Under the pieces are notes generated by a model, which had not been told where the DNA came from, did not search any database, and was given only the letters and a program-made list of their open reading frames with translations. A stretch of DNA of 64,000 nt, from the NCBI GenBank assembly GCA_964474135.1, contig CAYYRV010000002.1, forward strand, positions 74,473-138,472, written 5' to 3'. The translations under genes were made by a program, and so were the position numbers. This DNA is from an uncultured Defluviitaleaceae bacterium (GTDB lineage: Bacteria > Bacillota > Clostridia > Lachnospirales > CAYYRV01). Below are positions 2,510 to 59,382 of the stretch, piece after piece. Positions within the stretch are counted from its first letter, which is position 1, and every line of letters starts with the position of its first letter.

Positions 2510-2577
2510 GCTTACCTTTTTTATAAATAAAAAGCAAATGCTTTCTTGTAATATATAAAGTTTATTTACCTGTAGTT

Positions 2578-2623
2578 AAAGTTTTGAAGAGGTTTGAGGA
2601 AACTTTTACAAAAGTTTCCTCAA
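2578..2623 (+). repeat. Family-1 stem-loop repeat, forward orientation
   Basis: AAAGTTTTGAAGAGGTTTGAGGAAACTTTT-AC-AAAAGTTTCCTCAA. Confidence 0.8.
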
Positions 2624-2633
2624 TGTTTTTTTT
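2594..2633 (+). terminator. Rho-independent terminator of ppiB, formed by the repeat hairpin
   Basis: 14-bp stem TTGAGGAAACTTTT/AAAAGTTTCCTCAA followed by TGTTTTTTTT. Confidence 0.7.
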
Positions 2634-2649: not shown

Positions 2650-4488
2650 TTAACGACATTCCCAAACGTGGAATACATTAGCAACACAGTCAGTTCCTAA
2701 GACATATGTATAGTTAATCTTTTTTGTTTCTCCTGCCGGAACTGTAACCTCAACGACATTCCACTTTTTTGATTCATTATTTATATATATAGTATCCTCT
2801 GTTTCACCTACACTTCTTTTATAATCACTTTCATAAATTTTATTGTTTATATTTTGTGTGTATATTTCATTTTCTGGGGTAATAATATTCACTGTAGATT
2901 GATAAGGGGCTACTAAGTAGTAAGTAAAGACTTTGTCCTCAAGAGTATCATTTTCCAAATAAGTGCTAATATGATAATCAATACCCCAGTTTCCTAAGTT
3001 TCCATAATTTCTTGTCCTGTTTCTTTTTTCTGAACCACTGTCCCCAACATACGGAATGTTAAGTATCCAAGTTGCTTTGTCTATTTCACTGTTTTCACCT
3101 CTAGGCTCAACTAAATGTACATCATATATTTCTCGTATATTATTTCGCTCGTTAATATTTTTATCAAGCCCACCTGTTTCAAAGCCAATACCTATGTTAT
3201 TTTCTTTAAATTCAGATGCTTTAATTTTACCTAAAGCGGATATATTATAACCATTACTATATCCTGAATATACTGTATAGTATTTTAAAGAGTTTCTGCT
3301 GTCAATTTCGGAAGCATAGCTTTCGGGTATATAATTATAGTCATATGCTTTATTAGGTGTTTCAATGCTTTTATAACGAATTGGCAAGTCAACTGTTGAG
3401 CCTGTATTTTCCATAATAAAAGCTGTTACTAATAAATCTTTGTCAGCAAAAAAATCAATTTGAGAAGAAATAAATTTTTCACTTTGCAAATTTTCTATTA
3501 CGATATCAAACTTTTCGTTAGGATTTATAATATATTTTTCAATTTTTTGATTTATAAGCTTATTATAAAAATCCTGATTGTTTTTAATAACAACTTGGTC
3601 TGTATAGGGTTCTTCATTTTGGGTTTTACTATCACCTACAATACTTAATTGAACTGGGTTGTCCTTTTTGTTTTCAAACCTAATTACATAATCTATATTT
3701 TTTTTGGAATAATTAAAATGAGAAACAAAAACACGCCCATAACCAACCACTTCTTTTTGATTAATAAATGTTTCTAAGAAGCTGTTATCAAATATTGCTT
3801 CGGGAAAGTTGCAGAATACTAATGTAGTATTATCTTCCATATCTAAATTATCAAATGGTCTTATTAGAAATTTATCGCTTTTAGTTATAATTCTTTCATT
3901 TTTCCAAGTAACGCTTTTACTTGACTCATTTATTGAAATTATAGGAAGATATTTTTTATTAAGATTATAATTATACTGTATGTCTTTATCAAAAACCAAA
4001 ATATCTGATATGTAGTCTATTTTTAACCCCATATTTTCTGTAACAAAACGGGTAGGTACATATGTTCTTGAATTAATTATTTTTGCCGCAACGCCCAGTT
4101 TTATAGGGCTTCCATTTACATATGCTATATTGCTATCAATTGTTAACAGTATTTCATCTCCAGAATTTTTTATTGTTACTTCTCTTTTAAGAGCATCATA
4201 ATCTGCTTTTGCACCTAGCTTTTCTGAAACAACTCCAATAGGAATTAAAGAGTATTCATTATCTATAATAGGATAGATGTCTTTTATTATTTCTCCGTTT
4301 ACCTCAAGTAAAGCATCAATGTCGGAAACATTAAGCCAAGGCTCATTATTCCCTAATGAAATAAAATAATTATTATTTTCAGTTTTTTCTGTTACAAATA
4401 GTGTTTTTCCATAGGCTTCAAAATTAATACAAATGCTAAATAAAATTGAAAACAATATAATAATATTGTACTTTAAGTAATTTTTCAT
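2650..4488 (-). CDS. Secreted protein with a copper-amine-oxidase-N-terminal-like (stalk) domain and a large uncharacterised C-terminal region
   Basis: Signal-peptide-like N-terminus. The segment LIPIGVVSEKLGAKADYD...RTYVPTRFVTENMGLKIDY resembles the CAO N-terminal-like domain. The rest is not recognisable. Confidence 0.5.
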   Translation of the reverse strand: MKNYLKYNIIILFSILFSICINFEAYGKTLFVTEKTENNNYFISLGNNEPWLNVSDIDALLEVNGEIIKDIYPIIDNEYSLIPIGVVSEKLGAKADYDALKREVTIKNSGDEILLTIDSNIAYVNGSPIKLGVAAKIINSRTYVPTRFVTENMGLKIDYISDILVFDKDIQYNYNLNKKYLPIISINESSKSVTWKNERIITKSDKFLIRPFDNLDMEDNTTLVFCNFPEAIFDNSFLETFINQKEVVGYGRVFVSHFNYSKKNIDYVIRFENKKDNPVQLSIVGDSKTQNEEPYTDQVVIKNNQDFYNKLINQKIEKYIINPNEKFDIVIENLQSEKFISSQIDFFADKDLLVTAFIMENTGSTVDLPIRYKSIETPNKAYDYNYIPESYASEIDSRNSLKYYTVYSGYSNGYNISALGKIKASEFKENNIGIGFETGGLDKNINERNNIREIYDVHLVEPRGENSEIDKATWILNIPYVGDSGSEKRNRTRNYGNLGNWGIDYHISTYLENDTLEDKVFTYYLVAPYQSTVNIITPENEIYTQNINNKIYESDYKRSVGETEDTIYINNESKKWNVVEVTVPAGETKKINYTYVLGTDCVANVFHVWECR

Positions 4489-7904: not shown

Positions 7905-8357
7905 ATGATTCGTATTGAGCCTATGGAGATAAAACATATTAATGAAGTATATGAAATAGAAAAAAACAGTTTTTCAATTCCGTGGACGAAACAATCTTTG
8001 ACTCAAGAACTTCTTGAAAATAAAATAGCTATATATATTATGGCTGTAGAAGATAATAATATTTTGGGATATGCAGGCATGTGGCATGTTGTAACAGAGG
8101 GGCATATAACAAATATAGCCGTAAAAGAGGAATGCAGAAAACGTGGGGTAGGAAGTGCATTACTGAAAGGGCTTATTAATATTGCCGAACAAAAGGGAAT
8201 GATAGGGCTGACTTTGGAGGTCAGAGTGGGAAATGCTGCGGCAATGAAGCTTTATTCCAACTATGGCTTTAAAGTTGAGGGATATAGGAAGGAATATTAT
8301 TCTGATACAAAAGAAGATGCTGTTGTTATGTGGAAATATTTGAATATAGAATATTAA
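7905..8357 (+). CDS. rimI: Ribosomal-protein-alanine N-acetyltransferase (GNAT)
   Basis: GNAT motif RKRGVGSALL. Start moved from TTG 7875 to ATG 7905, which has an AAGGGGA SD. Confidence 0.85.
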   Translation: MIRIEPMEIKHINEVYEIEKNSFSIPWTKQSLTQELLENKIAIYIMAVEDNNILGYAGMWHVVTEGHITNIAVKEECRKRGVGSALLKGLINIAEQKGMIGLTLEVRVGNAAAMKLYSNYGFKVEGYRKEYYSDTKEDAVVMWKYLNIEY

Positions 8358-8480
8358 AAGAGTTTCCCAAACCCTTCAAAAACTTTAACTAAAATGCCGT
8401 TATGAGGCATTTCGACAAAGATTCTTTTTTTTATTCATTTAAGAAAGAATTGGGGGACTGGGGCTGAAAGCCCCAAAAGT
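8358..8480 (-). repeat. Mosaic repeat block: truncated family-1 unit (8362-8386) plus three hairpin modules (8392-8412, 8421-8450, 8460-8474)
   Basis: GTTTCCCAAACCCTTCAAAAACTTT, AAATGCC/GGCATTT, ATTCTTT/AAAGAAT and GGGGCT/AGCCCC. The reverse complement of 8416-8478 matches 59953-60015 at 51/63 positions. Confidence 0.75.
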
Positions 8481-10955: not shown

Positions 10956-11050
10956 CCTTGAGGAAACTTTTGAAAAAGTTTCCTCAAACTCCTTCAAAAC
11001 TTTTATCAGAAACTCGTTTCACTCGTTTCTTTTGGGACTTAAGGTTTTTT
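10956..11050 (-). repeat. Family-1 unit (10956-11004, reverse) plus hairpin module X (11008-11030) and a T-rich tail
   Basis: 10956-11004 is the exact reverse complement of 30042-30090 (49/49). Block ends CTTAAGGTTTTTT and probably terminates the Lon-like gene. Confidence 0.85.
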
Positions 11051-15276: not shown

Positions 15277-15890
15277 AAATAGGCATTTTAGTATCTGGAG
15301 GAGGTACTAACTTACAGGCTATAATAGATAAGATTAATGAAGGATATTTGAATGCCGAAATTGCAGTTGTTGTTAGCAATAACGCTGATGCATATGCATT
15401 AAAAAGAGCCGAAGATAATAATATTAAAACGTTTTGTTTTACAAATAAACAGTTTTTGGATTGTGTTTACATAGACGAGATAATTTCCTGTTTTTTGAAA
15501 TGTGGTGTCGGTTTAATAGTAACAGCTGGATTTTTGCTTGTATTGCAAAGTAAGTTTATTAAAGCTTTTGAAAACAAAATAATTAATGTTCACCCTTCTC
15601 TTATTCCTTCTTTTTGTGGTAAAGGATTTTATGGATTAGGTGTACATGAAGCTGTTTTGGAAAAAGGTGTTAAAGTAACAGGGGCGACAGTGCATTTTGT
15701 AGATGAAGGAACGGATACAGGAGCAATTATTTTACAAAAGGCTGTTGATGTTAAGGAAGATGATACTCCAGAAAAATTGCAAAAACGTGTTATGGAAGAA
15801 GCTGAATGGGTAATTTTACCGCAGGCTATTAAACTGTTTTCAGAAAACAAACTGCAAATCTATAACAATAAGGTAGTTATAAAAAATTAA
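15270..15890 (+). CDS. purN: Phosphoribosylglycinamide formyltransferase
   Basis: [23 protein letters not shown]. Overlaps the purM stop. Confidence 0.95.
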
Positions 15891-15903
15891 TGATATTGTG
15901 TTT

Positions 15904-15912
15904 TGATATAAT
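15904..15912 (+). promoter_or_regulatory. Candidate extended -10 promoter between purN and purD
   Basis: TGATATAAT is a perfect TGnTATAAT. No good -35 element. Confidence 0.3.
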
Positions 15913-16028
15913 TTGGCAAACTAAAGTATACAATATGGAGTTAGCAGATTGAGAAGGGTTGGCGTTTTTCCACAATAAAGTACTAGCTCAAATATTGAAT
16001 ATAGGCTCTAAATAAAAGTACTTATGTT

Positions 16029-16078
16029 AAAAGTTTTGAAGAAGTTTGAGGAGACTTTTCCAAAAGTTTCCTCAAGGT
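16029..16078 (+). repeat. Family-1 stem-loop repeat, forward, inside the purN-purD spacer
   Basis: AAAAGTTTTGAAGAAGTTTGAGGAGACTTTTCCAAAAGTTTCCTCAAGG, 46/49 identical to the copy at 30042. No T-run follows. Confidence 0.85.
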
Positions 16079-16116
16079 CTTATTAAAACTTTAATATACT
16101 TAAAAAGGAGGGTATT

Positions 16117-17376
16117 ATGAAGCTGCTTGTTATAGGCGGAGGAGGGCGTGAACACGCAATTATTTGGAAGCTTAAACAAAATCCTAAAATAACACAAGTA
16201 TATTGTGCACCCGGAAATGCAGGCATTTCGCAATTAGCTGAATGTGTACATATTTCTGCAACAGATATAAGCGGATTATTAAAATTTGCTATTGATGAAA
16301 AAATTGATTTTACAATAGTAGGCATGGACGACCCACTTGTTATAGGAATAGTTGATGAGTTTGAGAAAAATGGGTTAAAGATATTTGGACCTCGAAAAAA
16401 TGCTGCTATTATAGAAGGAAGTAAAGCTTTTTCTAAAGAGCTTATGAAAAAATATAACATTCCGACAGCAGAATACGAGATTTTTGATAATTACAATGAA
16501 GCTTTTCAATATTTGAAGAGGATAAAATATCCAGTTGTAATTAAGGCTGATGGGCTTGCATTGGGAAAAGGTGTTTTGATTTGTGATAGTGAGTTGCAAG
16601 CTGAAACAGCATTAAAAGAAATCATGATAGATAAAAAATTTGGTACAGCAGGTAACAAAGTAGTTATAGAGGAATATTTGACAGGTGCTGAGGTTTCGAT
16701 TTTAGCTTTTTGCGATAGTAAAACTATTGTACCTATGGTAAGCGCTCAAGACCATAAAAGGGCATTAGATTATGACCAAGGGCTTAATACAGGTGGTATG
16801 GGAACTTTTTCTCCCAGCAAGTTTTATACTGAAAATATTGCAGACGAGTGTATAAAAAAAATATTTATACCTACAATGAATGCTTTAAATATGGAGGGAC
16901 GACCTTTTAAAGGTATTATTTTCTTTGGGCTTATGCTTACAGAAAATGGAGCTAAGGTTATTGAATATAACTGTCGGTTTGGTGACCCTGAAACTCAAGT
17001 TGTTTTACCCCGCCTCAAAACAGATTTGCTTGAAATTTTGCTTGCTTGTGAAAGTGAGACGTTAAGTAATGTTGATATACAATGGGAAAATAATTCTGCA
17101 TGTTGTGTAATATTGGCATCAGGAGGATACCCCCAAAAATATGAAACGGGATATGAAATAAGAGGGTTTGAAGCTTTTTATAATAGAGAAGATGTTGTTT
17201 TATTTCATGCTGGAACAAAAGTTGTTGACGGAAATGTAGTTACATCAGGAGGTAGAGTTCTAGGGGTTACCGGTATAGGTAGTAATTTAGAAGACGCTAT
17301 TAAGGTTGCTTATGAAAACGTTGACAAAGTAAGATTTAAAAATATGCATTTTCGTACAGATATTGGCCGAAAATAG
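16117..17376 (+). CDS. purD: Phosphoribosylamine--glycine ligase
   Basis: MKLLVIGGGGREHA, ATP-grasp core. Confidence 0.95.
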   Translation: MKLLVIGGGGREHAIIWKLKQNPKITQVYCAPGNAGISQLAECVHISATDISGLLKFAIDEKIDFTIVGMDDPLVIGIVDEFEKNGLKIFGPRKNAAIIEGSKAFSKELMKKYNIPTAEYEIFDNYNEAFQYLKRIKYPVVIKADGLALGKGVLICDSELQAETALKEIMIDKKFGTAGNKVVIEEYLTGAEVSILAFCDSKTIVPMVSAQDHKRALDYDQGLNTGGMGTFSPSKFYTENIADECIKKIFIPTMNALNMEGRPFKGIIFFGLMLTENGAKVIEYNCRFGDPETQVVLPRLKTDLLEILLACESETLSNVDIQWENNSACCVILASGGYPQKYETGYEIRGFEAFYNREDVVLFHAGTKVVDGNVVTSGGRVLGVTGIGSNLEDAIKVAYENVDKVRFKNMHFRTDIGRK

Positions 17377-26997: not shown

Positions 26998-28047
26998 ATG
27001 GCTGGTACTACTGTAAATAACGACGAACCGATATGGCTAGGATATGATGTTGATAATGTTGATGGCTCAAGAAAAAACCCTGTTAATAGCTTAACAAGAA
27101 AACCTAGCAATGAACTTGATAAAGATGCATTTTTGAAACTGCTTCTTACTCAAATGCAATATCAGGACCCGTTAAATCCTACAGATGACAAGCAATTTAT
27201 TGCACAGATGGCTCAATTTACTTCATTGGAACAAATGCAGAATGTAAATAAGTCAGTTGTTCAAATTCAGGCATATTCTATGATGGGTAAATATGTTGAG
27301 GGAAGTATTATCAATGAAGAAGCAAATACTAAAACAATGGTTGATGGTGTAGTTTCAGCTGTCAGAATGCAAAATGGCGAAGCTATGTTGCTTGTATCTA
27401 TACCAGGAAAAGATGAACCTGTAGAACTTCCACTAAATAGGGTAGAAAATGTTTACTCTGATAACTTTATCGGAAGTATAAACAACTTAAATTCAAATAT
27501 TATTACTCAACAGAACTTGGCTCTTATGGGCAAATTTGTTCAAGCCGTTATTCCAGATAAAGATGGCAAACCGATTAAGTTTATTGAAGGCAAAGTTGAT
27601 AATATTAAATTTGATGATAGAAATAATCCTATTTTAGTAGTGGGCAATGAAGAAATTTATGCAAAACATGTTCTTTCTATTGGTGAAAAAATGAGACTTA
27701 TAGGAGAAAAAATTCACTATGATGCTGAAGTAGATGGCGAAACTAAAGCTGTAGAAGGAACAATATCAAATATATACTTTAAAGATTTAAACATTAAAGG
27801 TGAAGAACCGAAAATAATGATGACTGTTTCTGGAAAAGATTTTGAAATTAAAAACATCGGTGTATTTACAGATTCATTAAAATATGTTGGTCAAAACGTA
27901 AATTATGACAGTATTTCTGGTAAAGTAGTTGGAATAAAAGTTAAAAACGGCTTACCGTATATGATGGTGAACACAGCAGCCGAAGGAGAAGACCCAAATA
28001 TAAAAGATTTATCATATATAGGGTATAAAGGCATTACACTCTCTTAG
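26998..28047 (+). CDS. flgD: Flagellar hook assembly (capping) protein FlgD, long form
   Basis: DKDAFLKLLLTQMQYQDPLNP...FTSLEQ signature. Start set at ATG 26998, after an AGGAGG SD. Confidence 0.85.
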   Translation: MAGTTVNNDEPIWLGYDVDNVDGSRKNPVNSLTRKPSNELDKDAFLKLLLTQMQYQDPLNPTDDKQFIAQMAQFTSLEQMQNVNKSVVQIQAYSMMGKYVEGSIINEEANTKTMVDGVVSAVRMQNGEAMLLVSIPGKDEPVELPLNRVENVYSDNFIGSINNLNSNIITQQNLALMGKFVQAVIPDKDGKPIKFIEGKVDNIKFDDRNNPILVVGNEEIYAKHVLSIGEKMRLIGEKIHYDAEVDGETKAVEGTISNIYFKDLNIKGEEPKIMMTVSGKDFEIKNIGVFTDSLKYVGQNVNYDSISGKVVGIKVKNGLPYMMVNTAAEGEDPNIKDLSYIGYKGITLS

Positions 28048-28068
28048 AAAAATTGGTGGTGAATAACT

Positions 28069-28455
28069 GTGAGAGTTTTTCATAACAACGTAATAGTACC
28101 TGAAAGTCAGCAACTGCAAAAACAAAATAACAGCGGTCAAACAGCATCAAAAGAGAACTCTCAGGTTAATTTTAATAATATTCTTAGTAATAAAATCAGT
28201 GAACAAAAGCCCTTGTTTTTTTCTAAACATGCCAGTATGAGGCTTAGTGCAAGGGATATTACTTTGTCACCCGACCAATTAAGAAGAGTTGAAAGCGGTG
28301 TCGACAAAGCTTTGGAAAAAGGTATTAATGATTCTTTAGTTCTTGTTGATAACGTTGCTTTAGTTGTTAATGTAAAAAGTAAAACTGTAATAACAGCAAT
28401 GAATAAGGAAAATGATAATATTTTTACTAATATTGATGGGGCTGTAATTGTTTAA
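28069..28455 (+). CDS. Small flagellar operon protein of the kind found between flgD and flgE in Firmicutes (TIGR02530-like)
   Basis: FSKHASMRLSARDI motif and gene position. Confidence 0.55.
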   Translation: MRVFHNNVIVPESQQLQKQNNSGQTASKENSQVNFNNILSNKISEQKPLFFSKHASMRLSARDITLSPDQLRRVESGVDKALEKGINDSLVLVDNVALVVNVKSKTVITAMNKENDNIFTNIDGAVIV

Positions 28456-28581
28456 AAGCCGGACCTTCTTGGAAGCTTTTCTATTTCTGAACGACTGAAG
28501 AAATAGATTTACAGCCTGTCAATTATCAAATGCAATTTATTTTTATTTTGCATAACTTAACTTAAAAGGGGGTCATCAATT

Positions 28582-29967
28582 ATGATGCGTTCTATGTTCT
28601 CCGGAGTTTCAGGGCTTCGGATTCATCAAACAAAAATGGATGTTATTGCAAATAACATCTCAAACGTAAACACTGTAGGGTTTAAATCAAGCAGGGTTAC
28701 GTTTAATGAAGTTTTTTATCAAACAACAGCAGGTGCAAGTGGTGCTAACGCTGAATCAGGGCGTGGAGGTGTTAACCCAACTCAAATCGGTTTGGGTGCA
28801 AGCGTTGCCTCTATTGATAAAAATATGACTCAAGGTGCTGCACAAAGAACTGATATTGCAACAGATGTTATGATTAATGGTGATGGGTTTTTTATTGTAG
28901 GAGATAACAGCGGAACATATTTTACTCGTGCCGGTGCTATGACTATAGATGATGAGGGTAACTTGGTTACTCCTACAGGCATGCGTGTTATGGGCTGGGA
29001 TACTGCAAAAGATGCTAATGGAAAATGGGTTGTTAATCAGGGAAATGTTAAACCTATTACTTTCTCTGGTGATAAACAATACGCTCCTCCGTCTCCTACT
29101 ACTAATATTGAGTTTGAAGGAAACTTAAATCCTGTTACTAATCCTACAAGAGAATCATCAATGGACTTTTATGATACTGTAGGTAATAGATATGTTGTTA
29201 ATGTGAAATATACTCTTAATGGTGCTGATTGGGATATGACTGTTGGCGATGTAGCATATATAGATGGTGATAAAACTAAGCCAGGTGTTAAAGTTGCAGT
29301 TGCTGGGCTTGCTTTAACTCTTACTGGTCCGCCTAATGTAGCCCCAGGAACTGAAGTAAAGTATACTGCTCTAGGAACAGGAAAGATATCATTTGATACA
29401 GAAGGAGATATAACGGGGGCACTGGGCAATAATAATATTGCTACAGACCCTGAGCTTAAAGTTCCGATTACAGTAACAGGTACTGGTTTAGTGCCAAACT
29501 CTACATTTGGTATAGGTGGTACTGTTACATTGAAATTTGGTAAGTTAAAACAGTATGTTGGTGAGTCAGCAAATGCGAAAGCTGTAAAAGTAGATGGTGC
29601 AAAACCTGGAACATTAAGCGGTCTTAGCATAGGAACAGACGGTATAATTACAGGGCGTTACAGTAACGGTACAACAAGACCTCTTAATCAAATACCTGTA
29701 GCAAGATTTAAAAACCCTGCTGGACTTGAAAAAATAGGTGATAACCTTTATGTTTCAACATCTAACTCCGGTGATTTTGACGGCGTTGGAGAAGACGTTC
29801 AAGGTGGTGGAGGAAGAATGATGGGCGGCGTTTTGGAAATGGCAAACGTTGACCTTGCAGCAGAATTTACAGATATGATTACTACACAAAGAGGTTTCCA
29901 AGCTAACTCAAGAATTATAACAACATCAGATGAAATGCTTAATGAGTTAGTTAATATTAAACGTTAA
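28582..29967 (+). CDS. flgE: Flagellar hook protein FlgE
   Basis: MRSMFSGVSGLR...NNISNVNTVGFK at the N-terminus. C-terminal TTQRGFQANSRIITTSDEML. Confidence 0.9.
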   Translation: MMRSMFSGVSGLRIHQTKMDVIANNISNVNTVGFKSSRVTFNEVFYQTTAGASGANAESGRGGVNPTQIGLGASVASIDKNMTQGAAQRTDIATDVMINGDGFFIVGDNSGTYFTRAGAMTIDDEGNLVTPTGMRVMGWDTAKDANGKWVVNQGNVKPITFSGDKQYAPPSPTTNIEFEGNLNPVTNPTRESSMDFYDTVGNRYVVNVKYTLNGADWDMTVGDVAYIDGDKTKPGVKVAVAGLALTLTGPPNVAPGTEVKYTALGTGKISFDTEGDITGALGNNNIATDPELKVPITVTGTGLVPNSTFGIGGTVTLKFGKLKQYVGESANAKAVKVDGAKPGTLSGLSIGTDGIITGRYSNGTTRPLNQIPVARFKNPAGLEKIGDNLYVSTSNSGDFDGVGEDVQGGGGRMMGGVLEMANVDLAAEFTDMITTQRGFQANSRIITTSDEMLNELVNIKR

Positions 29968-30041
29968 TTAAATTTTTAGATATACTTCTAAACTTTATAT
30001 ATTGAGCTTTTTTAAACCAATATACTTTATGCTCTTTTATT

Positions 30042-30090
30042 AAAAGTTTTGAAGGAGTTTGAGGAAACTTTTTCAAAAGTTTCCTCAAGG
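30042..30090 (+). repeat. Family-1 stem-loop repeat, forward, in the flgE-flbD gap
   Basis: AAAAGTTTTGAAGGAGTTTGAGGAAACTTTTTCAAAAGTTTCCTCAAGG, followed by TTTTAATATTTT. Confidence 0.9.
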
Positions 30091-30318
30091 TTTTAATATT
30101 TTAATATAACTTTTTATTTATAGTTTACTTAGGTTCAGCAAAACTTATTGGGGTTATTTTTAAAAATTATATTAAAATTTTTGTCAGTTAGGTTTGTATA
30201 TATATGTTATTTTTTATCAAAAAAATGTATAATGAAGCTTATTAAGAAATCAGAAAAATTTTTACAATAAACACTAATATTGCAGTAAGCTTTTAAATAC
30301 TTTTATTTTGGAGGGTAT

Positions 30319-30516
30319 ATGATATATATTACCAAGTTAAACGATAAGATGTTATTGATTAATTGCGACTTAATAGAAAGTATTGAGTCAAATCCGGATA
30401 CGACAATAACTATGACCACCGGGCGGAAAATTATTGCTAAGGAGTCAGTTGAAGAAATAATAGATAAAGTAATTGAATACAATAGAAAAATCTTTTCTAA
30501 TAAATCAAATAGTTAG
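30319..30516 (+). CDS. flbD: Flagellar protein FlbD
   Basis: 65 aa, ITKLNDKMLLINCDLIESIE..DTTITMTTG pattern. Precedes motA. Confidence 0.85.
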   Translation: MIYITKLNDKMLLINCDLIESIESNPDTTITMTTGRKIIAKESVEEIIDKVIEYNRKIFSNKSNS

Positions 30517-30528
30517 GAGGAAATTAAG

Positions 30529-31329
30529 TTGGATTTAGCTTCCCTTATTGGCATGATTGCCGGTTGGTTTTCTGTTATATTTTCTATATTATGGGCTGCG
30601 AATTTTCAGTTTGGAAATGCATTAGCTTTTATTGACCCACCTTCCATATTTATAGTTTTTGGAGGTACTATATCTGCTACTATGATATCTTTTCCTTTGC
30701 CGGCACTTTCCAATTCCATGAAAGCTGTAAAAAAAGTATTTTCTCCTCCTAAGGTTGACCCAGCCGGAGCTATAGAAAATATTATAAAATTAGCCAATTT
30801 AGCTAGAAAAGAAGGTATACTTGCTTTAGAAGAATCTGCAAGGGCTATGGAGGACGAATTTTTACAAAAAGGTATTATGCTTATAGTTGACGGTACAGAC
30901 CCAGAACTAACAAGAAACATCATGGAAACAGAACTTGCATATATTGAAAATAGGCATGGTGCAACAAGAGCTGTTTGGGAGTTTGTTGGTTCATCTGCAC
31001 CGGCATGGGGTATGATTGGTACTCTTATAGGGCTTATACTTATGCTTCAGCAGTTAAGTGACCCTAGTACAATAGGTCCTAAAATGGCGGTTGCCTTGAT
31101 AACTACATTTTATGGTTCTCTTATTGCAAACTTTATTGCAAACCCTTTTGCAAACAAACTAAAAGTTTATAGTAATGAGGAGGTTCTTATGAAGGAAGTT
31201 TTGATAGAAGGTATGTTGTCTATTCAAGCTGGTGAGAACCCAAGGATAATTGAAGAAAAATTAAAATCATTCCTTTCTCCTGCATTAAGAAGTAATGTTG
31301 GCGGAGGTAATCAGGCGGGTGAAAAATAA
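30529..31329 (+). CDS. motA: Flagellar stator protein MotA
   Basis: Four-TM MotA/TolQ/ExbB channel pattern. TTG start. Confidence 0.9.
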   Translation: MDLASLIGMIAGWFSVIFSILWAANFQFGNALAFIDPPSIFIVFGGTISATMISFPLPALSNSMKAVKKVFSPPKVDPAGAIENIIKLANLARKEGILALEESARAMEDEFLQKGIMLIVDGTDPELTRNIMETELAYIENRHGATRAVWEFVGSSAPAWGMIGTLIGLILMLQQLSDPSTIGPKMAVALITTFYGSLIANFIANPFANKLKVYSNEEVLMKEVLIEGMLSIQAGENPRIIEEKLKSFLSPALRSNVGGGNQAGEK

Positions 31330-32102
31330 TGGCAGTTAAAAAGAAGCCCGAGGAAGTAAAGGCAGGAGCACCGGAGTATATGAATACATATGGTGACCTT
31401 GTTACACTTTTACTATGTTTCTTTGTTTTACTTTTTGCTATGTCTACTGTAGATGCCGCAAAGTTTGAGGCTATGGTTAATTCTTTTTCGATAAATAGCC
31501 CTATAAGTGTAGTTGTTAGTGGTGGAAAGGAAACTGTTTTTGATTTATATGGTAGTGGCATAATGCAAATGCCTACTATTGAACAAATCGTTAATGCAGA
31601 TAACATTGAGGAGTTAAAAAAAGCTCAAGATGCACAACAGGAGCTTTCTCAAATGTCATCGGATTTTAAAACTTATTTTGCAGAGAATAATGTTGCCGAG
31701 CAAATTCAAGTAGAGGTTAAAGACCAGACTATAGTTTTAACCTTTAAAGAAGGGGTTTTGTTTGACTCCGGTAAGGATGCACTTAAACAATCTGCAAGAG
31801 GCGTTTTGGATATTGTTGTAGAGCAACTTTCTCAGTATCCTGATAATGATATAGAAGTACAAGGAAATACAGATACAGACCCTATTAATACTATCCAATT
31901 CCCAAGCAATTGGCATTTATCATCTAGTAGGGCTATAGCAGTAGGGCAATATTTTATAGAAGAAAAGGGATTTTCGCCTGAACGGTTAAGAATGCTTGGA
32001 AGAGGGCAATACAATCCTGTAGCCCCTAATGACACTATTGAAAATAAAGCAAAAAATAGGCGAGTTGAAATAATAATAAAAAGCAGAGAATATTCTGACT
32101 AA
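31329..32102 (+). CDS. motB: Flagellar stator protein MotB (OmpA-like C-terminus)
   Basis: N-terminal TM helix with YGDLVTLLLCFF. C-terminal NRRVEIII. Confidence 0.9.
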   Translation: MAVKKKPEEVKAGAPEYMNTYGDLVTLLLCFFVLLFAMSTVDAAKFEAMVNSFSINSPISVVVSGGKETVFDLYGSGIMQMPTIEQIVNADNIEELKKAQDAQQELSQMSSDFKTYFAENNVAEQIQVEVKDQTIVLTFKEGVLFDSGKDALKQSARGVLDIVVEQLSQYPDNDIEVQGNTDTDPINTIQFPSNWHLSSSRAIAVGQYFIEEKGFSPERLRMLGRGQYNPVAPNDTIENKAKNRRVEIIIKSREYSD

Positions 32103-32142
32103 TAATAAGTTTTATAGCTTACAAAGCTTTAATATACCAGTT

Positions 32143-32652
32143 ATGAAGGGGAGAACAGAATTGGAGAAAAATAAAATTTTGATGGTAGTTATTATTGCAC
32201 TTCTTGTAATACTTTTGGCTGCAATAGCATTTTTGGGCTTTTCGGTTTCTAAATTTTTGAGTGGCCCTAAAGACGACAATACAGAAGTAACAGATACAAC
32301 AGAAATATCTGTACCTGTAGATAAAATTCAAACAGTAAATTTAAGCAGACCTATTGCAACAAATCTTCTTAAAGGTGCTGACGGAGCTTCTCATAATATA
32401 AGTGTTAACCCTGTTATAGGAGTTAATATTACTAATAAAAAAGAGGGCGAAAAAATAGTTACCCTTCTTACAGAAAAAGAAAGTATAGTACGTGACATTT
32501 GCGGCGATATAGTAAGGAGTAAAACTTACGAGGAATTATCTAGACCGGATGGAAAAGATTTATTATGTCAGGAAATTTTAGAGAGGCTGCAAGAAGAATT
32601 TTCAAGCGATTTGATTTATCAAGTTTATGCTGATGATTTTATTTTGCCATAA
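32143..32652 (+). CDS. fliL: Flagellar basal body-associated protein FliL
   Basis: Single TM helix, position before fliM. An in-frame TTG at 32161 has a better SD (AAGGGGAG), so the start is uncertain. Confidence 0.75.
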   Translation: MKGRTELEKNKILMVVIIALLVILLAAIAFLGFSVSKFLSGPKDDNTEVTDTTEISVPVDKIQTVNLSRPIATNLLKGADGASHNISVNPVIGVNITNKKEGEKIVTLLTEKESIVRDICGDIVRSKTYEELSRPDGKDLLCQEILERLQEEFSSDLIYQVYADDFILP

Positions 32653-32690
32653 ATAACTCATTTAAGTAAATATATTCGGTAGGTGAAAAT

Positions 32691-33677
32691 ATGGGCGATA
32701 TATTATCTCAAAAAGAGATTGATGAGCTACTAAAAGCTTTTAACAGCGGTAACGCAGAAGATATTGTGATTTCAGAAAAAAAAGACTCAAAACAAGCTAA
32801 AGATTACAATTTTGCACGCCCCTCAAAATTTAATAAAGACCAGTTGCATACTCTAGAAATAATTTTTGAAAGTTATTCAAGGTTGGTTTCATCATTTTTG
32901 ACAGGGTATTTAAGAACTGCTTGCCAAATAGAAGTGGCAAATGCAGAGCAAATGACGTATAATGAATTTAACAACTCTTTAGTAAACCCTGTTGTATTGG
33001 GGCTTTTAGAGTTTCAGCCTTTAAAGGGCTCAATTATGCTTGAATTATCCGCAAATATAGGTTATGCTATAATAGATAGGATTTTGGGTGGTCCCGGCGT
33101 AGGTATGAAAAAACTTCGTGATTTTTCTGAGATTGAGAAGATATTGCTTGACAGAGTTGTTTCTCAAATGCTTACTTATTTACCTGAACCATGGGAAAAT
33201 GTGGTTAAAATAAAACCTAGACTTGATAAAATAGAAACAAATTCTCAGTTTGCTCAAATTATATCTCCAAACGAGATGATTGCCCTTGTTACTTTAAGCA
33301 TAAAAATCGGAAGTTCAGAAGGCATGATAAACTTTTGTATTCCTCATCTTGTTATCGAACCTATTATGGATAGGTTATATACTAAGTTTTGGTTTGAACA
33401 GAACTTTTCGCAGTCTGTTCAGGAAACGTACAGAGATGATTTGGAGAATCAGCTTGAAAAAGCATTTGTTCCTATTACTGCTGTAGTTGGTAAAACAACT
33501 ATTACAGTTAATGATTTCGTTAATCTTCAAGTGGGTGATATTATACCGCTTGATTCTTATATTACTTCAGATTTGAGAGTTATGGTTGGCAGTTTGTTGA
33601 AATTTTATGGAAAACCGGGTATCAACAGAGGGAAAAATGCCATTCAAATTACTTCATTTGTAGAGAAGGAGGAATAG
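32691..33677 (+). CDS. fliM: Flagellar motor switch protein FliM
   Basis: N-terminal LSQKEIDELL CheY-P binding motif. Confidence 0.95.
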   Translation: MGDILSQKEIDELLKAFNSGNAEDIVISEKKDSKQAKDYNFARPSKFNKDQLHTLEIIFESYSRLVSSFLTGYLRTACQIEVANAEQMTYNEFNNSLVNPVVLGLLEFQPLKGSIMLELSANIGYAIIDRILGGPGVGMKKLRDFSEIEKILLDRVVSQMLTYLPEPWENVVKIKPRLDKIETNSQFAQIISPNEMIALVTLSIKIGSSEGMINFCIPHLVIEPIMDRLYTKFWFEQNFSQSVQETYRDDLENQLEKAFVPITAVVGKTTITVNDFVNLQVGDIIPLDSYITSDLRVMVGSLLKFYGKPGINRGKNAIQITSFVEKEE

Positions 33678-33681
33678 CAAA

Positions 33682-34965
33682 ATGGGAGACATGCTTTCGC
33701 AAGACGAAATAAACGCATTGCTTGGCGGTATAAACCCCTCTGATGTTGCTCTTGATGAGGAAGCAGAAGTGAATGGATATACTGATGATACACTTACTGA
33801 TGAACATAAAGATATTTTAGGAGAAATTGGAAATATCAGTATGGGTACTTCGGCAACAACTTTGTTTGCTCTGCTTGGTCAAAAAGTTATAATAAATACA
33901 CCTAAGGTTAGCACTATAACTTGGCAGGAGATGACTGAGAGTTACGACAGACCGTGCGTAGGAATACGTGTAGATTATAAGGAAGGGCTGGAAGGCTCTA
34001 ATATACTGATATTAAAAGAACATGACGTTAAAATAATTTCTAATTTGATGATGGGTGGAAACGGTCAAGTAGAAGATGAGGTAGAATTATCAGAAATTGA
34101 CTTAAGTGCTATTGGTGAGGCAATGAATCAAATGGTTGGTTCATCCTCTACCTCTATTTCTTCAATGATTAATAGGAAAATAGATATAGACACACCACAT
34201 GCATTTTTATTGGATTTTGAAGAAGTAGGAACGTTTTTTAATGAAGTTGGGTTTTCGCCCGACGAAATAATAGTATGTGTAAGGTTTAAAATGCAGATTG
34301 GAACACTTATAGATAGTGAGATTATGCAAATATTGCCAAAGGAGTTTGCTATAGAGATGGTTGAGACTCTTAAAAAAGAAATGATGTCGACTGCATCACC
34401 CCAAGATGAAGAAAAACAACTTTTTGATGATATTACGGCTCAAGAGGGGAATAACATTCCACCAACGCCTTCTCAGGCTCAATATGGTGCTCCTCCGCAA
34501 CAGCCATATGGTATGCCACCACAACAGCAATATGGTATGCCTCCGCAACAGCCATATGGTGTGCCACCACAGCAACAATATAATGTACCTCCGCAGCAAC
34601 CATATGGAAGTGCTGTACCACCATATAATCAATATACACAAAATCAGATGAACCAAGATTACAATGTGAAGCCAGCACAATTTCAAAATTTTGATGTTTC
34701 TGCTGTTATGCAGCAAAAGGAGAACATTGATATAATAATGGATGTTCCTTTGGAGGTTACTGTTGAGTTAGGCAGAACAAACAAAAAAATTAGAGAAATT
34801 CTTGAATTTTCTCCAGGAACTATTATTGAATTAGATAAATTGGCTGGAGAACCTATAGATATTTTAGTAAATGGTAAGTTTGTTGCTAAAGGTGAAGTTG
34901 TAGTTATTGATGAAAATTTTGGTATAAGAATTACTGATATAATAAGCCCAGAAAAGAGAATATAA
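33682..34965 (+). CDS. fliY: Flagellar motor switch protein FliY (CheC-like N-terminal half plus FliN C-terminal domain)
   Basis: LSQDEINALL, CheC-like region, C-terminal FliN/SpoA domain. Contains an internal P/Q-rich repeat. Confidence 0.9.
   Translation: MGDMLSQDEINALLGGINPSDVALDEEAEVNGYTDDTLTDEHKDILGEIGNISMGTSATTLFALLGQKVIINTPKVSTITWQEMTESYDRPCVGIRVDYKEGLEGSNILILKEHDVKIISNLMMGGNGQVEDEVELSEIDLSAIGEAMNQMVGSSSTSISSMINRKIDIDTPHAFLLDFEEVGTFFNEVGFSPDEIIVCVRFKMQIGTLIDSEIMQILPKEFAIEMVETLKKEMMSTASPQDEEKQLFDDITAQEGNNIPPTPSQAQYGAPPQQPYGMPPQQQYGMPPQQPYGVPPQQQYNVPPQQPYGSAVPPYNQYTQNQMNQDYNVKPAQFQNFDVSAVMQQKENIDIIMDVPLEVTVELGRTNKKIREILEFSPGTIIELDKLAGEPIDILVNGKFVAKGEVVVIDENFGIRITDIISPEKRI
34492..34611 (+). 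repeat. In-frame tandem repeat, 5 x 24 nt (PPQQ[PQ]YG[MV]), inside fliY
   Basis: Units 1 and 3 are CCTCCGCAACAGCCATATGGT(A/G)TG. Units 2 and 4 are CCACCACA(A/G)CA(G/A)CAATAT... This gives a 48-nt super-period. Confidence 0.85.
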
Positions 34966-34988
34966 TCGTAATTGAGGAGTGATTTATA

Positions 34989-35354: not shown

Positions 35355-35366
35355 AGAAGGTATTAA

Positions 35367-35801: not shown

Positions 35802-35816
35802 TTGGGAGTGGGCTTG

Positions 35817-36578: not shown

Positions 36579-36591
36579 GGGGGCTTGTTAG

Positions 36592-36867: not shown

Positions 36868-36880
36868 TTTTTAATATTTT

Positions 36881-36902
36881 GGGGCTTTTAGTCACAAGCC
36901 CC
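36881..36902. repeat. GGGGCT/AGCCCC hairpin module in the fliQ-fliR gap
   Basis: TTTTGGGGCTT-TTAGTCAC-AAGCCCC. Same module type as at 8460, 47989, 59953 and 63371. Confidence 0.6.
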
Positions 36903-38881: not shown

Positions 38882-38890
38882 AAAGATACT

Positions 38891-39052
38891 GGGGAGGAAA
38901 CTTTTGAAAAAGTTTCCTCCCCAAACCCCTCCTTTAAAACTTTTATCGGAAACGCTGTGCGTTTCCTTGCTGCTTCTTTTGTCTCTTATCTAAGTACAAA
39001 ATTAAAGTTTTTTGAAGGGTTTGGGAGACTTTTTTCAAAAAAGTCTCCTAAG
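38891..39052. repeat. Inverted pair of family-1 units (38891-38944 reverse, 39004-39052 forward) flanking hairpin module X (38948-38966)
   Basis: GGGGAGGAAAC...GTTTCCTCCCCAAACCCCTCCTTTAAAACTTTT, then GGAAACGC-TGT-GCGTTTCC, then AAAGTTTTTTGAAGGGTTTGGGAGAC...GTCTCC. Confidence 0.85.
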
Positions 39053-39061
39053 GTCGTTAAT

Positions 39062-41257: not shown

Positions 41258-41309
41258 TTATTATTTTTGCTAAATATATATGAATGTATAACCAAGAAAA
41301 ACCTAAAAT

Positions 41310-41358
41310 AAAGCTTTTTGAAGGGTTTGGGAAACTTTTTCTCGAAAAAGTTTCCCAA
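41310..41358 (+). repeat. Family-1 stem-loop repeat, forward, upstream of sbcD
   Basis: AAAGCTTTTTGAAGGGTTTGGGAAACTTTTTCTCGAAAAAGTTTCCCAA. Confidence 0.85.
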
Positions 41359-41398
41359 TATCTTTGTTAAAAAAATAATATTATCAAGGAGGGAATTT

Positions 41399-47984: not shown

Positions 47985-48078
47985 TTTTGGGGCTGAATGC
48001 CCTAAATATTAATATCAGAAACATAAAAAAGAGGAAACTTTTCAAAAGTTTCCTCTTTTTTATGTTTTAAAAACTTTT
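47985..48078. repeat. Mosaic repeat block: GGGGC/GCCCT module with TAAATATTAATAT tail, then a 45-nt near-perfect palindrome built on the family-1 hairpin
   Basis: ACATAAAAAAGAGGAAACTTTT-C-AAAAGTTTCCTCTTTTTTATGT (48021-48065), then TTTAAAAACTTTT. Confidence 0.85.
48021..48065. terminator. Bidirectional rho-independent terminator between convergent genes
   Basis: 22-bp arms with an A-run on the left and a T-run on the right. Confidence 0.7.
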
Positions 48079-48079
48079 A

Positions 48080-49966
48080 TTATAGTTTTGGTATAAAATC
48101 ATAATAATCTTGAACAGAAGCATCATTTAAACAAGCCTCAATAATTTGTCTGCCCAAAGGATTAATTTCAGGAGTTAAATATTTTTTAATTTCATGCTTG
48201 AAGAAGTCAGTTAAAATTTTTGCTCCGGCATCATATCCTTCATTTCCAACCTCTGGTTGATGATTAACTTGTAAAAATCCTTTTGATAATAAAGTACCAT
48301 CAAATTTAATACTTTCAAGAGCATAACCTAAGATAGGGCAACGAGAAGGTGTTAAAACACCGTCTTTAAATTTTAGACCGCCTCGTCTTGAAAGGTACTC
48401 TCTTGTAACCCATTGCCCTGAAAATCCTACTTTGTAAGCTCCTATATATTGATTAGGAATTAAAATATATCTTGTAGACAATGTTTTTAAAATCTGTTCC
48501 AATAATAAATTTGCTTGGTCAACCATTTTACCTGTAGCAAAAGGCCAATAAGAGCCTACCCCTTCGCTTTTCATTCCACCTGAATCTACAATACTTGGGT
48601 TTGCAAATCCTCTTGGCGCAGCTAAACGCCACAACCAGCCTAATGCTGGAGGTAGAACATGGAAAAGCCCAACTATACCATAATTAGGGTTTTCTTTTGT
48701 TGTTGGCGGTGTCCTAATGCCAAAGCTTCTTATATCAACCTCCGTAGAACCTTCCACATAATTGTTTACAAAAGTTCTAGGCATTATTACTCTTGGGTTT
48801 GGACAAGGTTTGCCAGGTTCGTCCATTATAGGCTCCCAAATTAAACAGGTTGAGCCTGGTACTGCATCCATATTAATAAAAACAAGAGGTTTTTTAGGGC
48901 TTATTGTACTTTTTTCAGTTTCGGGTTGAGTGCCGTATTCTGTAATATGGTTAACTCTTAAAAACCAGCCGTCTTCAGCATCTGCAACAACAAGTTTTCC
49001 GTCAGATGTTTGTAATGATGGGTGTGCAAGTGCCATATCATCAGTTACAGGGTGTATTTCGGAACTATCTGTAATAGTAATCAAATACTTTTCATCTGTA
49101 ATAATGTTCGTTCCTAATAAAAGCCTACCATCAGGCTCTCTGTGGAACTGCTCAATCATTTCGCTTTTACCGCCTCCGCTTGCTCCTTCATGCATAATTG
49201 TCAAAGTAAGCTCATAAGGAGTAATTATTTTTACTGTAGAAGCGTGCAAAGTAACCCATTTTTCCTGTTCTCCTATATCTAAAAGCACAGCATAAATACC
49301 TTTTTTTGCACTTGGACCTGGGTATAAATTATATGAAAATACTTCATGCATATCAAACAATCTATTATGTATTACAACTTGTTTACCATCGTAATGAGTA
49401 TGTCTAAAAGGAGGTGCAACATAAACTATAGCTCTTGGCTTAAAGAAGTTAGGTATTTTATCTTTAGGTATAAATCCCTGCAAGTCTGCAAGTGCAGCAG
49501 CAAAAAATGCAGCATTAGAAGGAAGAACCAAAAGTGCTTGATAACCTAAATTCAAATCACCGGCTCCAGCCAAAAACGGAAGGAAGATAAGTTCATCTTG
49601 ATTTTTTAGCCATTCAAATGTTTCTAAGCGAATGTCATCAAATTCTTTTCCAAACTTTTCTGTATGTGTAATTTTATCTGTTGGCAAATCGTCTGCTATA
49701 ACCATACTGTCTGGGTCACGCCTTCTCATGTATGGGTCGTCATAGTTTGCAACTATACCGTTTTTACACTTAACAACATATGCCTCTCTTACTAATCCCT
49801 TTCCCTCAACCTCATAAGAAACGTCAAAGGTCATTTTTCCTCCGCCTGTAGCCATTTCCATTAGTTGCTCTCTGCTATCGGGTATAATGATATTACCCTT
49901 TCCGTTATTTATTACATCTTTTAATTCTGTAGGTAGAACCATCTTTTTAGTAATGCTTTTATACAA
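48080..49966 (-). CDS. Uncharacterised 628-aa protein with a P-loop (HEGASGGGKSE); possibly PEPCK/HPr-kinase-like fold (DUF4914-like)
   Basis: GASGGGKSEM Walker-A-like motif followed by VTDDMALAH. Family name is recalled, not verified. Confidence 0.45.
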   Translation of the reverse strand: MYKSITKKMVLPTELKDVINNGKGNIIIPDSREQLMEMATGGGKMTFDVSYEVEGKGLVREAYVVKCKNGIVANYDDPYMRRRDPDSMVIADDLPTDKITHTEKFGKEFDDIRLETFEWLKNQDELIFLPFLAGAGDLNLGYQALLVLPSNAAFFAAALADLQGFIPKDKIPNFFKPRAIVYVAPPFRHTHYDGKQVVIHNRLFDMHEVFSYNLYPGPSAKKGIYAVLLDIGEQEKWVTLHASTVKIITPYELTLTIMHEGASGGGKSEMIEQFHREPDGRLLLGTNIITDEKYLITITDSSEIHPVTDDMALAHPSLQTSDGKLVVADAEDGWFLRVNHITEYGTQPETEKSTISPKKPLVFINMDAVPGSTCLIWEPIMDEPGKPCPNPRVIMPRTFVNNYVEGSTEVDIRSFGIRTPPTTKENPNYGIVGLFHVLPPALGWLWRLAAPRGFANPSIVDSGGMKSEGVGSYWPFATGKMVDQANLLLEQILKTLSTRYILIPNQYIGAYKVGFSGQWVTREYLSRRGGLKFKDGVLTPSRCPILGYALESIKFDGTLLSKGFLQVNHQPEVGNEGYDAGAKILTDFFKHEIKKYLTPEINPLGRQIIEACLNDASVQDYYDFIPKL

Positions 49967-53615: not shown

Positions 53616-53650
53616 GAGGAGAAAACTTTGTTAAAAGGTTTTCTCCATTT
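53616..53650 (+). repeat. Diverged family-1-like hairpin (hairpin only)
   Basis: GGAGAAAACTTTGTTAAAAGGTTTTCTCC. Confidence 0.4.
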
Positions 53651-59312: not shown

Positions 59313-59363
59313 AAGGATAGGAAAGCTTTTTTAAAAAAGTTTTCCTATCCCTTCAAAAAACTG
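59313..59363 (-). repeat. Family-1 stem-loop repeat, reverse, diverged stem
   Basis: GGATAGGAAAGCTTTTTT-A-AAAAAGTTTTCCTATCC followed by CTTCAAAAAACTG. Confidence 0.7.
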
Positions 59364-59382
59364 AGACTAGTTTTAGTTCATA

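Follow-up and report, generated by a model that had tools for sequence, protein, structure and literature searches.

Copies of the repeat in the window

The window, by which we mean the whole 64-kb stretch of DNA that was analysed, has about 30% GC and the gene content of a spore-forming and flagellated Firmicute. Its intergenic gaps carry copies of a module of about 52 nt, composed of a 20-nt tag, AAAGTTTT(N)GAAGG(N)GTTTG, and then a hairpin which in the window copies has the foot TTGRGG…CCYCAA. The tag is one-sided and runs into the hairpin, and with its indels the full pattern is AAAGTTTT(N0-2)GAAGG(N0-1)GTTTG. A 49-mer consensus was found exactly at 10956-11004 (-) and 30042-30090 (+) and with 3 mismatches at 16029-16077 (+), and it had no match in 100 shuffles of the window. 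In addition, the degenerate tag pattern has 6 sites in the window, against 0 expected. The copies were also scored with a covariance model (R1) built mostly from copies in other phyla. Because the window sequences were in its training set as well, the R1 scores in the window are partly due to construction, and the independent support for the family comes from the shuffle controls and from the copies in other genomes.

Using R1 together with a reading of all sites, we counted 8 full modules, 1 truncated, 1 diverged and 1 doubtful. The earlier note on this DNA had described a family of 11 copies; the family holds against the shuffles, but the count does not, as the sites are not 11 equal copies. 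It had also described two copies as identical in opposite orientation and a third, at 16029, as differing from them at 3 positions, and both statements agree with the consensus matches given above. The recent spread or homogenisation that it read from them is backed by nothing beyond the two identical copies.

The first solo module (2574..2625, +; R1 57 bits) lies where the 3' ends of two genes converge, one for a cyclophilin (2009-2509, +) and one with a Cu_amine_oxidN1 domain (2650-4488, -); its RNA fold has -19.8 kcal/mol (z -4.3), and a run of eight T follows it. The truncated module at 8362..8386 (-) begins 5 nt past the stop of a GNAT/rimI-like gene, assigned by Pfam. It retains the tag and the 5' stem arm without the outer arm and scores 32 bits over 8326-8389, so that the truncated copy previously reported at the rimI stop is genuine. 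The solo module at 10956..11007 (-; 68 bits), the same as 30042-90 in opposite orientation, has a LonC-like protease gene on one side and an M16 peptidase gene on the other. A contig of another assembly (L001) breaks exactly at the inner edge of this module, and a 12-kb Logan contig is identical to part of the window.

Two further solo modules on the forward strand are found within the 226-nt spacer of purN and purD (16026..16077; 59 bits) and in the flagellar block, 3' of flgE and 5' of flbD-like/motA, where a T-rich tail follows (30039..30090; 68 bits). A complete foldback element (38887..39053) lies between the converging ends of flhB and a gene of the F420-ligase family. It has a left arm (38887-38947, -; 45 bits), a centre with its own hairpin GGAAACGC/GCGTTTCC (38948-39000) and a right arm (39001-39053, +; 60 bits). 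Another solo module is located between a LysR regulator gene and sbcD (41307..41360, +; 62 bits). A diverged solo module with the stem GGATAGGAAAAC/GCTTTCCTATCC (59316..59366, -; 39 bits; -23.4 kcal/mol, z -5.2) comes after a NUDIX gene and is followed by a run of seven T. The diverged copy (48027..48080, -), which is placed between converging genes, has the hairpin GAGGAAAC/GTTTCCTC and a remnant tag, AAAAGTTTTT, and scores 22-23 bits (E~0.001-0.002). The doubtful hairpin (53619..53645, +; 18 bits, E~0.015) is similar in sequence, has no tag, and may be an ordinary terminator after a carD-like gene.

All of the window copies are intergenic, in agreement with the earlier claim that none lies in a confident coding sequence; the copy at 41310-41358 overlaps only an implausible TTG start of the sbcD-like ORF, the Pfam domain of which starts from residue 28. 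The stem interiors differ among the copies (GAGGAAAC, GGGAAAC, GGGAGAC, GGGGAGGAAAC and GGATAGGAAAAC), and their arms always match. Every stem variant listed earlier was present with its matching partner arm.

Foldback architecture and constraint on the module

The sites 38891-38944 (-) and 39004-39052 (+) were found to be the two arms of one 162-nt foldback element around a central palindrome. As single-stranded DNA, 38887-39053 folds into a left hairpin, a stem of tag with tag that carries the central hairpin, and a right hairpin (-41.5 kcal/mol, z -8.65). The order in a complete element is a hairpin (TTGRGG, variable stem, CCYCAA), the tag in reverse complement, a variable central palindrome, the tag and a second hairpin. 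Complete elements measure 110-330 nt and have lineage-specific outer extensions. When the Lentisphaeria copies were aligned with their surroundings, the module proved to be the right arm of a 197-214-nt element. On its left this element has an inverted and diverged copy, the hairpin of which is compensated in a different way, and in its middle a long palindrome of variable sequence. The foldback layout was found again in six further lineages, where it measures 110-270 nt in total, and metagenome-assembled genomes (MAGs) that show it are labelled Desulfomonilaceae, Planctomycetaceae, Thermodesulfobacteriota, Defluviitaleaceae, Oscillospiraceae and Nitrospinota. Besides the inverted doublet of the window (38887-39053), dozens occur in other genomes, and in the Ga0213870 organism, known from a metagenome (~43% GC), almost all intergenic gaps contain a foldback element. 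The module of Oscillospiraceae-type MAGs terminates a conserved, asymmetric non-coding unit of about 230 nt.

The inverted symmetry extends outward past the module, lineage by lineage: as GGAYGATG/CATCRTCC in the Lentisphaeria, as a polypurine/polypyrimidine stretch that is not copy-specific in the Ga0213870 organism, and over about 25 nt in the Desulfomonilaceae; in the Oscillospiraceae a 25-nt tail lies outside the module. Since the symmetry continues outside it, the module is the conserved inner core of the arms and not necessarily the cleavage tip. It is not a free-standing REP but the conserved core of a foldback inverted-repeat arm. The solo modules, which make up most of the window copies, would then be half-elements or decayed elements, doublets decaying to singlets. 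We also considered insertion into hairpin loops, which would leave copy-specific palindromic flanks; the genome with the best sampling does not support it (own 7.8 vs cross 7.3, p=0.10). Some few copies in Lentisphaeria and Planctomycete MAGs do resemble insertion into hairpin loops.

The constraint on the module was examined in an alignment of 62 sequences from several phyla, which was fitted to the structure, a procedure that favours covariation. In this alignment 96.1% of the stem cells are paired, against 85.7% after shuffling, and 10 of the 13 stem pairs have changes on both sides. The doubly-changed cells number 92 against 22 expected, a value reached by none of 500 shuffles, and shifting the partners by one column lowers the pairing to 76-79%. 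The covariation is also evident in a plain MAFFT alignment. In one Lentisphaeria element the two arms carry different stems, each of them compensated. Furthermore, the tag, AAAGTTTT..GAAGGGGTTTG, is unchanged in Lentisphaeria contigs of 61-68% GC; in hosts of 65% GC it is still AT-rich, and the interior of the stem has become AGCACCC/GGGTGGC. Changes in the stem are not accompanied by changes in the tag, which is therefore read as sequence. These comparisons indicate that selection acts on the sequence of the tag and on the base-pairing of the hairpin. The two corresponding proposals of the earlier note, a hairpin selected as structure and a one-sided flank conserved as sequence, are thereby supported, by strong covariation in the multi-phylum alignment for the former and by near invariance across phyla for the latter.

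Two other readings of the module were rejected. Pairing of the tag with the 5' arm, as in a riboswitch-like switch, does not agree with a tag that fails to covary when the stem changes, and a protein-coding repeat does not agree with the indels of 0-2 nt within the tag. That a single window of 64 kb holds five different stems speaks against a sequence-specific site for a dimeric protein. The G:T wobbles (15) are no commoner than the A:C mismatches (11), and hence no RNA signature of one particular strand is seen.

Host range, patchiness and search for a mobilising enzyme

The earlier note had proposed a search beyond the window, and modules were found in other genomes across phyla. A pattern scan with one genome per species gave at least 104 loci. 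Among the matches listed, about 80 are a tag with a hairpin, and these come from about 33 MAGs; the host range given here is a lower bound. Again among the matches listed, many of the carrier MAGs are labelled Clostridia, Oscillospiraceae, Lachnospiraceae or Defluviitaleaceae, two Lentisphaeria MAGs have 16 loci each on contigs of 61-68% GC, and the other carriers are Planctomycetaceae, Planctomycetia, Thermoguttaceae (on a 1.1-Mb contig), Desulfomonilaceae, Desulfovibrionaceae, Thermodesulfobacteriota and Nitrospinota. The same tag therefore occurs under at least five phylum-level labels, the phylum assignments being those given in the titles of the MAG records. Among the low-GC contigs, those labelled 'Desulfovibrionaceae' may have been binned wrongly; contamination with Clostridial DNA cannot explain the high-GC copies from Lentisphaeria and Planctomycete MAGs. 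In a scan of metagenome contigs all 78 loci were genuine, and their 428 kb contain 174 modules. When the consensus was searched with blastn in 72,556 plasmids and 50,697 phages, the sole real module was one of 41 bits on two small Enterococcus plasmids, pEC127 and pAT40b-c, downstream of a pre/mob gene, and a pattern scan of IMG/VR gave chance matches only.

The PurD of the window is at most about 70% identical to anything else in the protein collection, and the nearest named relatives are Lachnospirales-/Anaerotignaceae-type MAGs. Two contigs of related MAGs (L114 and L116) keep the gene order of the window (M16 peptidase-purM-purN-purD-flgB...), and the contigs of these family-level relatives (the two and four others, 86.7 kb) have no module at E ≤ 0.01. 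The module being absent from syntenic relatives, its distribution is patchy. In the syntenic relatives purN and purD overlap; the window has between them the 226-nt spacer with the module at 16026-77. The identity of the two identical window copies ends at the module, and their flanks are unrelated. In two Oscillospiraceae-type MAGs the element occupies the same place in the leuS leader; the module is 100% identical in both, with five differences in the adjoining 25 nt. About 60 element ends were inspected and showed no target-site duplication; as the ends are uncertain by a few nucleotides, a duplication of 2 bp might have escaped notice. Taken together, the distribution is that of an invasive element which moves horizontally and amplifies in certain hosts.

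The earlier note had reported that no transposase was present, and Pfam found none in the 30 window ORFs nearest to the copies. By annotation on L001, the genes between 11091 and about 24100 are housekeeping or flagellar; outside both sets lie roughly 15 ORFs in the remainder of the flagellar block (about 24.2-28.5 kb and 31.3-37.8 kb). The search was extended to about 1.1 Mb of module-bearing loci (about 0.7 Mb from genomes and 0.43 Mb from metagenomes), which are loci and not whole carrier genomes. Among about 1,800 ORFs near some 400 modules there was no recurrent transposase-like family, and all-vs-all clustering of the ORFs near modules returned AraC/LacI regulators, kinases, tRNA synthetases and the like. 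An HUH...Y regular expression run over the module loci identified a single RAYT-like gene (L040, Campylobacterales), which was rejected as the mobiliser because it is flanked by its own, unrelated REPs. Arm-bounded intervals of 677 and 877 nt contain no ORF, and one of 2,300 nt contains ordinary genes only. In low-copy genomes the module-adjacent ORFs, read by eye, were all housekeeping.

Comparison with known systems and likely nature of the element

REPs consist of a short conserved tag with a variable palindrome, form inverted dimers and are mobilised by single-copy RAYTs, and 'TIRtrons' are Y1 transposases (TIRYT) flanked by long TIRs that form repeat families (PMC3733652). Two REP superfamilies, GTAG- and CGTC-tagged, have been described (Di Nocera et al. 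2013, PMC3733652). The module resembles REPs and REPINs in its conserved unpaired tag on one side of a palindrome with a variable stem, in units that are single or form inverted pairs folding into a larger hairpin, in the lack of an internal transposase and of a target duplication, and in a tag shared across phyla while the stems differ. It is also extragenic, with an enrichment 3' of genes and in convergent gaps and few copies in divergent ones, the same bias as that of REPs (PMC3733652). It differs from REPs in the length of its tag, ~20 nt with no GTAG or CGTC beside the foot of the stem, and in a longer stem of 13-16 bp with a T/A-rich apex, and its motif is absent from the text supplements of PMC3733652. 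No RAYT or TIRYT gene flanked by modules was found in the window or in the ~1.1 Mb of loci, a search that, short of whole carrier genomes, could easily miss a single-copy gene. REPIN-RAYT systems are inherited vertically and are lineage-specific (PMC3733652; Bertels & Rainey 2011, PMC3116915), whereas the module is patchy in close relatives and spans Bacillota, PVC and Desulfobacterota-type MAGs and a plasmid. This cross-phylum patchiness suggests horizontal spread rather than vertical inheritance.

With MITEs such as Correia/CREE of Neisseria, RUP of S. pneumoniae and the Tn3-derived TIMEs, the element shares its short length, its non-coding nature, its inverted-repeat arms and its many intergenic copies, which can lie in 5' or 3' UTRs and be co-transcribed. 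Unlike MITEs, it has no TA, 5-bp or other target duplication and no parent IS in the loci searched, and each arm has its own covarying hairpin. Compared by eye, the arms do not fit what we take to be the 38-bp inverted-repeat layout of Tn3 (GGGG...TAAG). Hairpin-based recognition, transposition with no target duplication and a non-autonomous nature are shared with the IS200/IS605-derived PATEs; in IS200/IS605, however, both end hairpins are on the same strand and insertion is 3' of a fixed tetra- or pentanucleotide, while the module arms are inverted and the element ends show no constant tetranucleotide beside them. Integron attC sites were rejected, since the feet TTGRGG/CCYCAA and GGGGAAAC/GTTTCCCC do not fit R'' RYYYAAC / R' GTTRRRY. 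Likeness to parS, CodY, Rex, dif, attC and the Tn3 inverted repeat was likewise rejected, by comparing the consensus with what we take to be their motifs. Rfam, with which a comparison had been suggested earlier, was run at gathering and permissive thresholds; it returned only tRNAs in the window and sub-threshold noise for full elements of three lineages, and no relevant family. In a full-text search of the literature for the module sequence and for REP, RAYT and MITE in Clostridia, no description of the module was found. The first assignment, REP/BOX/MITE-like with no named family, is thus unchanged by the Rfam, plasmid, phage and literature searches, which gave no match to such a family.

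We consider it highly probable that the module belongs to a non-autonomous mobile repeat. On balance, we favour the view that the inverted-repeat arms of a small, non-autonomous foldback element have the module as their conserved core, and that this element is comparable to REPINs and MITEs and mobilised in trans, perhaps by a Y1-type enzyme. The copying would be done in trans by a putative unlinked and probably low-copy enzyme, which would read the tag beside the folded hairpin in single-stranded DNA and for which an HUH/Y1 tyrosine transposase of the RAYT/TIRYT type would be the best precedent. The lack of a visible target-site duplication and of a strand-specific RNA signature would agree with such a Y1 mechanism on single-stranded DNA. 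After insertion near the 3' ends of genes, the hairpins would be tolerated or co-opted as RNA 3'-end structures. Since no Y1 or other transposase is associated with the module, the enzyme is reached purely by inference, and Y1/HUH as its specific class, argued by analogy with REPs, is a tentative choice to which we give rather less than even weight. The 20-nt tag is far longer than the 4-nt tags of REPs and looks more like the binding site of a double-strand transposase, and sharing across phyla contradicts the vertical, lineage-specific inheritance of the REPIN model. In addition, the module is off the tip of the element in several lineages (GGAYGATG, polypurine, 25-nt tail), so that its role in cleavage is only putative.

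The main rival is an ordinary MITE, an internally deleted IS with a DDE transposase, in which the terminal inverted repeats contain the tag and IS copies elsewhere act by cut-and-paste. The true inverted-repeat arms, the size range of the complete elements and a 20-nt conserved subterminal sequence, which is typical of a double-strand transposase-binding site, are all MITE-like, and the lineage-specific outer tips would fit lineage-specific cleavage ends. On the other hand, a target-site duplication of any length is not visible at the roughly 60 ends, and neither a recurrent transposase nor an IS-sized element bounded by arms was seen in ~1.1 Mb of loci with about 400 modules. Double-strand binding would leave unexplained the 25-30 nt of self-complementarity in each arm with its free covariation, and apart from the one module on two plasmids the element is absent from the 72,556 plasmid and 50,697 phage records. 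We therefore regard a DDE-derived MITE as unlikely.

It is less probable still that the repeat is an RNA element selected by the host, a terminator or an mRNA 3'-end stabiliser, spread by recombination or gene conversion. The gene context has features that such an element would have. In loci of ≤56% GC, 30 modules are in tandem, 13 in convergent and 1 in divergent gaps and 1 is intragenic, against 165/35/34 tandem, convergent and divergent background gaps, so that divergent promoter regions are avoided. The window hairpins start 5-30 nt past stop codons and are stable (-17 to -23 kcal/mol, z -4 to -5), three to four of the copies are followed by T-runs in a terminator-like manner, and one copy parts flgE from the flagellar genes that follow, a place at which a difference in transcript stability would be sensible. 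A G+C-rich stem and then a U-tract in the transcribed orientation are seen at 2574, 30039, 41307 and 59316, and in the 14-kb stretch scanned for terminators (28000-42000) the sites flagged were 30039, 41307 and the reverse-strand reading of 38887. However, no such U-tract was found at 10956, 16026, 38887 and 39001, most copies lack one in the transcribed orientation, and the module occurs in both orientations relative to the upstream gene. In two loci (L096/L088) the element has a confirmed T-box leader on one side and the start codon of leuS on the other; being inside the leuS leader, it must be read through by transcription. There is also no excess of G:U over A:C, and an RNA element would leave unexplained the invariant 20-nt AT-rich tag in both 30% GC Clostridia and 65% GC Lentisphaeria, the inverted-pair architecture and the lack of the element in syntenic relatives, where the same genes would need termination. 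The hairpin may plausibly serve at RNA 3' ends or in 5' UTRs, either as stabiliser or as weak terminator; such a role, if real, would be secondary and context-dependent.

A multi-copy structured ncRNA gene or the scaffold of an RNA-guided mobile element (a remnant like ωRNA, reRNA or bridge RNA) would account for the covarying base pairs and for the asymmetric ~230-nt unit of the Oscillospiraceae-type MAGs, but is very improbable, as Rfam gave no match even at permissive thresholds, the arms are mirror images and give the same fold on either strand, an uncommon trait in an RNA gene, no consistent promoter was seen, and neither reading by eye nor clustering revealed a TnpB/IscB/IS110-like ORF near modules.

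Overall, we assign the family to the tagged palindromic repeats and REPIN-MITE-like elements, among which it is unusual in its 20-nt cross-phylum tag and in a mobilising enzyme that we only infer. A bolder extension of the favoured foldback reading would make it a third 'tagged palindrome' superfamily beside the GTAG and CGTC REPs, with a 20-nt tag, a covarying hairpin and foldback doublets, which would move between anaerobe phyla, occasionally by plasmid, saturate the intergenic space of some hosts and depend on a dedicated unlinked enzyme that reads single-stranded DNA; we put this forward as a doubtful possibility. Few parts of bacterial genomes are understood as poorly as small hairpin repeats, and for most of these, the CGTC REPs included, we know of no copying enzyme. 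The carriers of the present element range from Clostridia of 30% GC to Lentisphaerae of 65% GC and have close relatives without it, which makes it suitable for presence/absence profiling for the mobilising protein. The element also has practical consequences, as it breaks short-read assemblies (L001 ends exactly at a copy) and creates spurious ORFs in the annotation of MAGs. Furthermore, it occupies untranslated regions of essential genes, as in the leuS leader and the flagellar operon, and may alter mRNA stability there. If the idea of a third superfamily is true, an enzyme found by co-occurrence would provide a new, very compact and sequence-programmable DNA-recognition module.

The purN-purD spacer and other features of the window

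The purN-purD spacer of the window (15890-16117) has no counterpart in the syntenic relatives, and purD has a strong RBS of its own downstream of the spacer module. We also observed in this spacer a possible degenerate second module, TTGAGAAGGGTTGGCGTTTTTCCACAA (15948-15978); it precedes the intact module by about 80 nt and gave no hit with the covariance model of the module. In another part of the window, the diverged repeat copy at 48027-48080 lies directly downstream of a 508-aa ORF (46413-47939, + strand), for which no Pfam match was found at E ≤ 1e-5. The cumulative GC skew reaches its maximum near 52-56 kb, and at about 56 kb the gene orientation changes from mostly + to mostly -; this switch is adjoined by a tRNA-Pro/Val/Met cluster (58019-58263, - strand). 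The region of about 52000-58300 may be a replication terminus region.

Composite units, leader copies and outer flanks

In Oscillospiraceae/Eubacteriales MAGs, a non-coding unit of ~230 nt, which is conserved and asymmetric, has the module as its 3' part, as at 305-536 of L087 (further units are in L072, L066, L030, L050 and L009). The boundaries of this unit are an inverted repeat, GGCA(A/G)CAGCATTTAC...GTAAATGCTGTTGCC. The unit was found several times per genome and in different MAGs, and it has no match in Rfam; it may represent a composite element of another kind, or an RNA scaffold.

In two MAGs, the element was located within the leader of leuS, where it has the T-box riboswitch on one side and the start codon on the other (element 2566-2718 and T-box 2751-2974 (-) in L096; element 3797-3844 and T-box 4083-4306 (-) in L088). 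The two MAGs are 90% identical at this locus. One of these MAGs has the full foldback, and the other has a different GC-rich repeat in place of the second arm.

The outer flanks of the arms were observed at L092-type loci of metagenome sample Ga0213870 (L125, L179, L180 and others), which come from an organism of ~43% GC. Just outside the left arm, 10-25 nt are purine-rich (GGAGGGA...), and just outside the right arm, 10-25 nt are pyrimidine-rich (TCCCTCC...). These flanks are not copy-specific, and therefore they represent either an outer extension of the arms that is specific to the lineage or a preference for certain targets.

Other hairpin repeats and a RAYT-like gene

In module-rich MAGs, the same intergenic regions also hold other, unrelated hairpin repeat families (L004, 3214-3722; L009, L077 and L103). 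The LOHA04 Eubacteriales MAG, for example, has CGTCACGGCAATATCGTAGGGCGGGGGCTTGCTCCCGCCG, and Oscillospiraceae SIG618 has GGGAAGTCAGGG...CCCTGACTTCCC. A Campylobacterales MAG (L040) carries a RAYT-like Y1 transposase gene with an adjoining reverse-transcriptase-like ORF region (241-780 and 1336-2640, both on the - strand). The transposase gene has its own REPs, of the CTTGAACAAGTTCAAG type, at both sides. The frame of the reverse-transcriptase-like ORF includes a sequence that weakly resembles the module (33 bits) and has a small hairpin on each side.

Module variant on Enterococcus plasmids

Among 72,556 plasmid records, only two matched the module, namely pEC127 (NZ_CP144491.1, 4813-4865) and pAT40b-c (NZ_CP097037.1, 2497-2549). 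The plasmid-borne variant consists of AAAGTTTTAAGGGGGTCTGGGGG and the hairpin, and it scored 41 bits. It is flanked by the pre/mob gene and the iteron/rep region in one of the two, a 6.2-kb Enterococcus cecorum plasmid, and the other is an E. faecalis plasmid. It is suggested that these two plasmids are a possible vehicle for the horizontal spread of the module.
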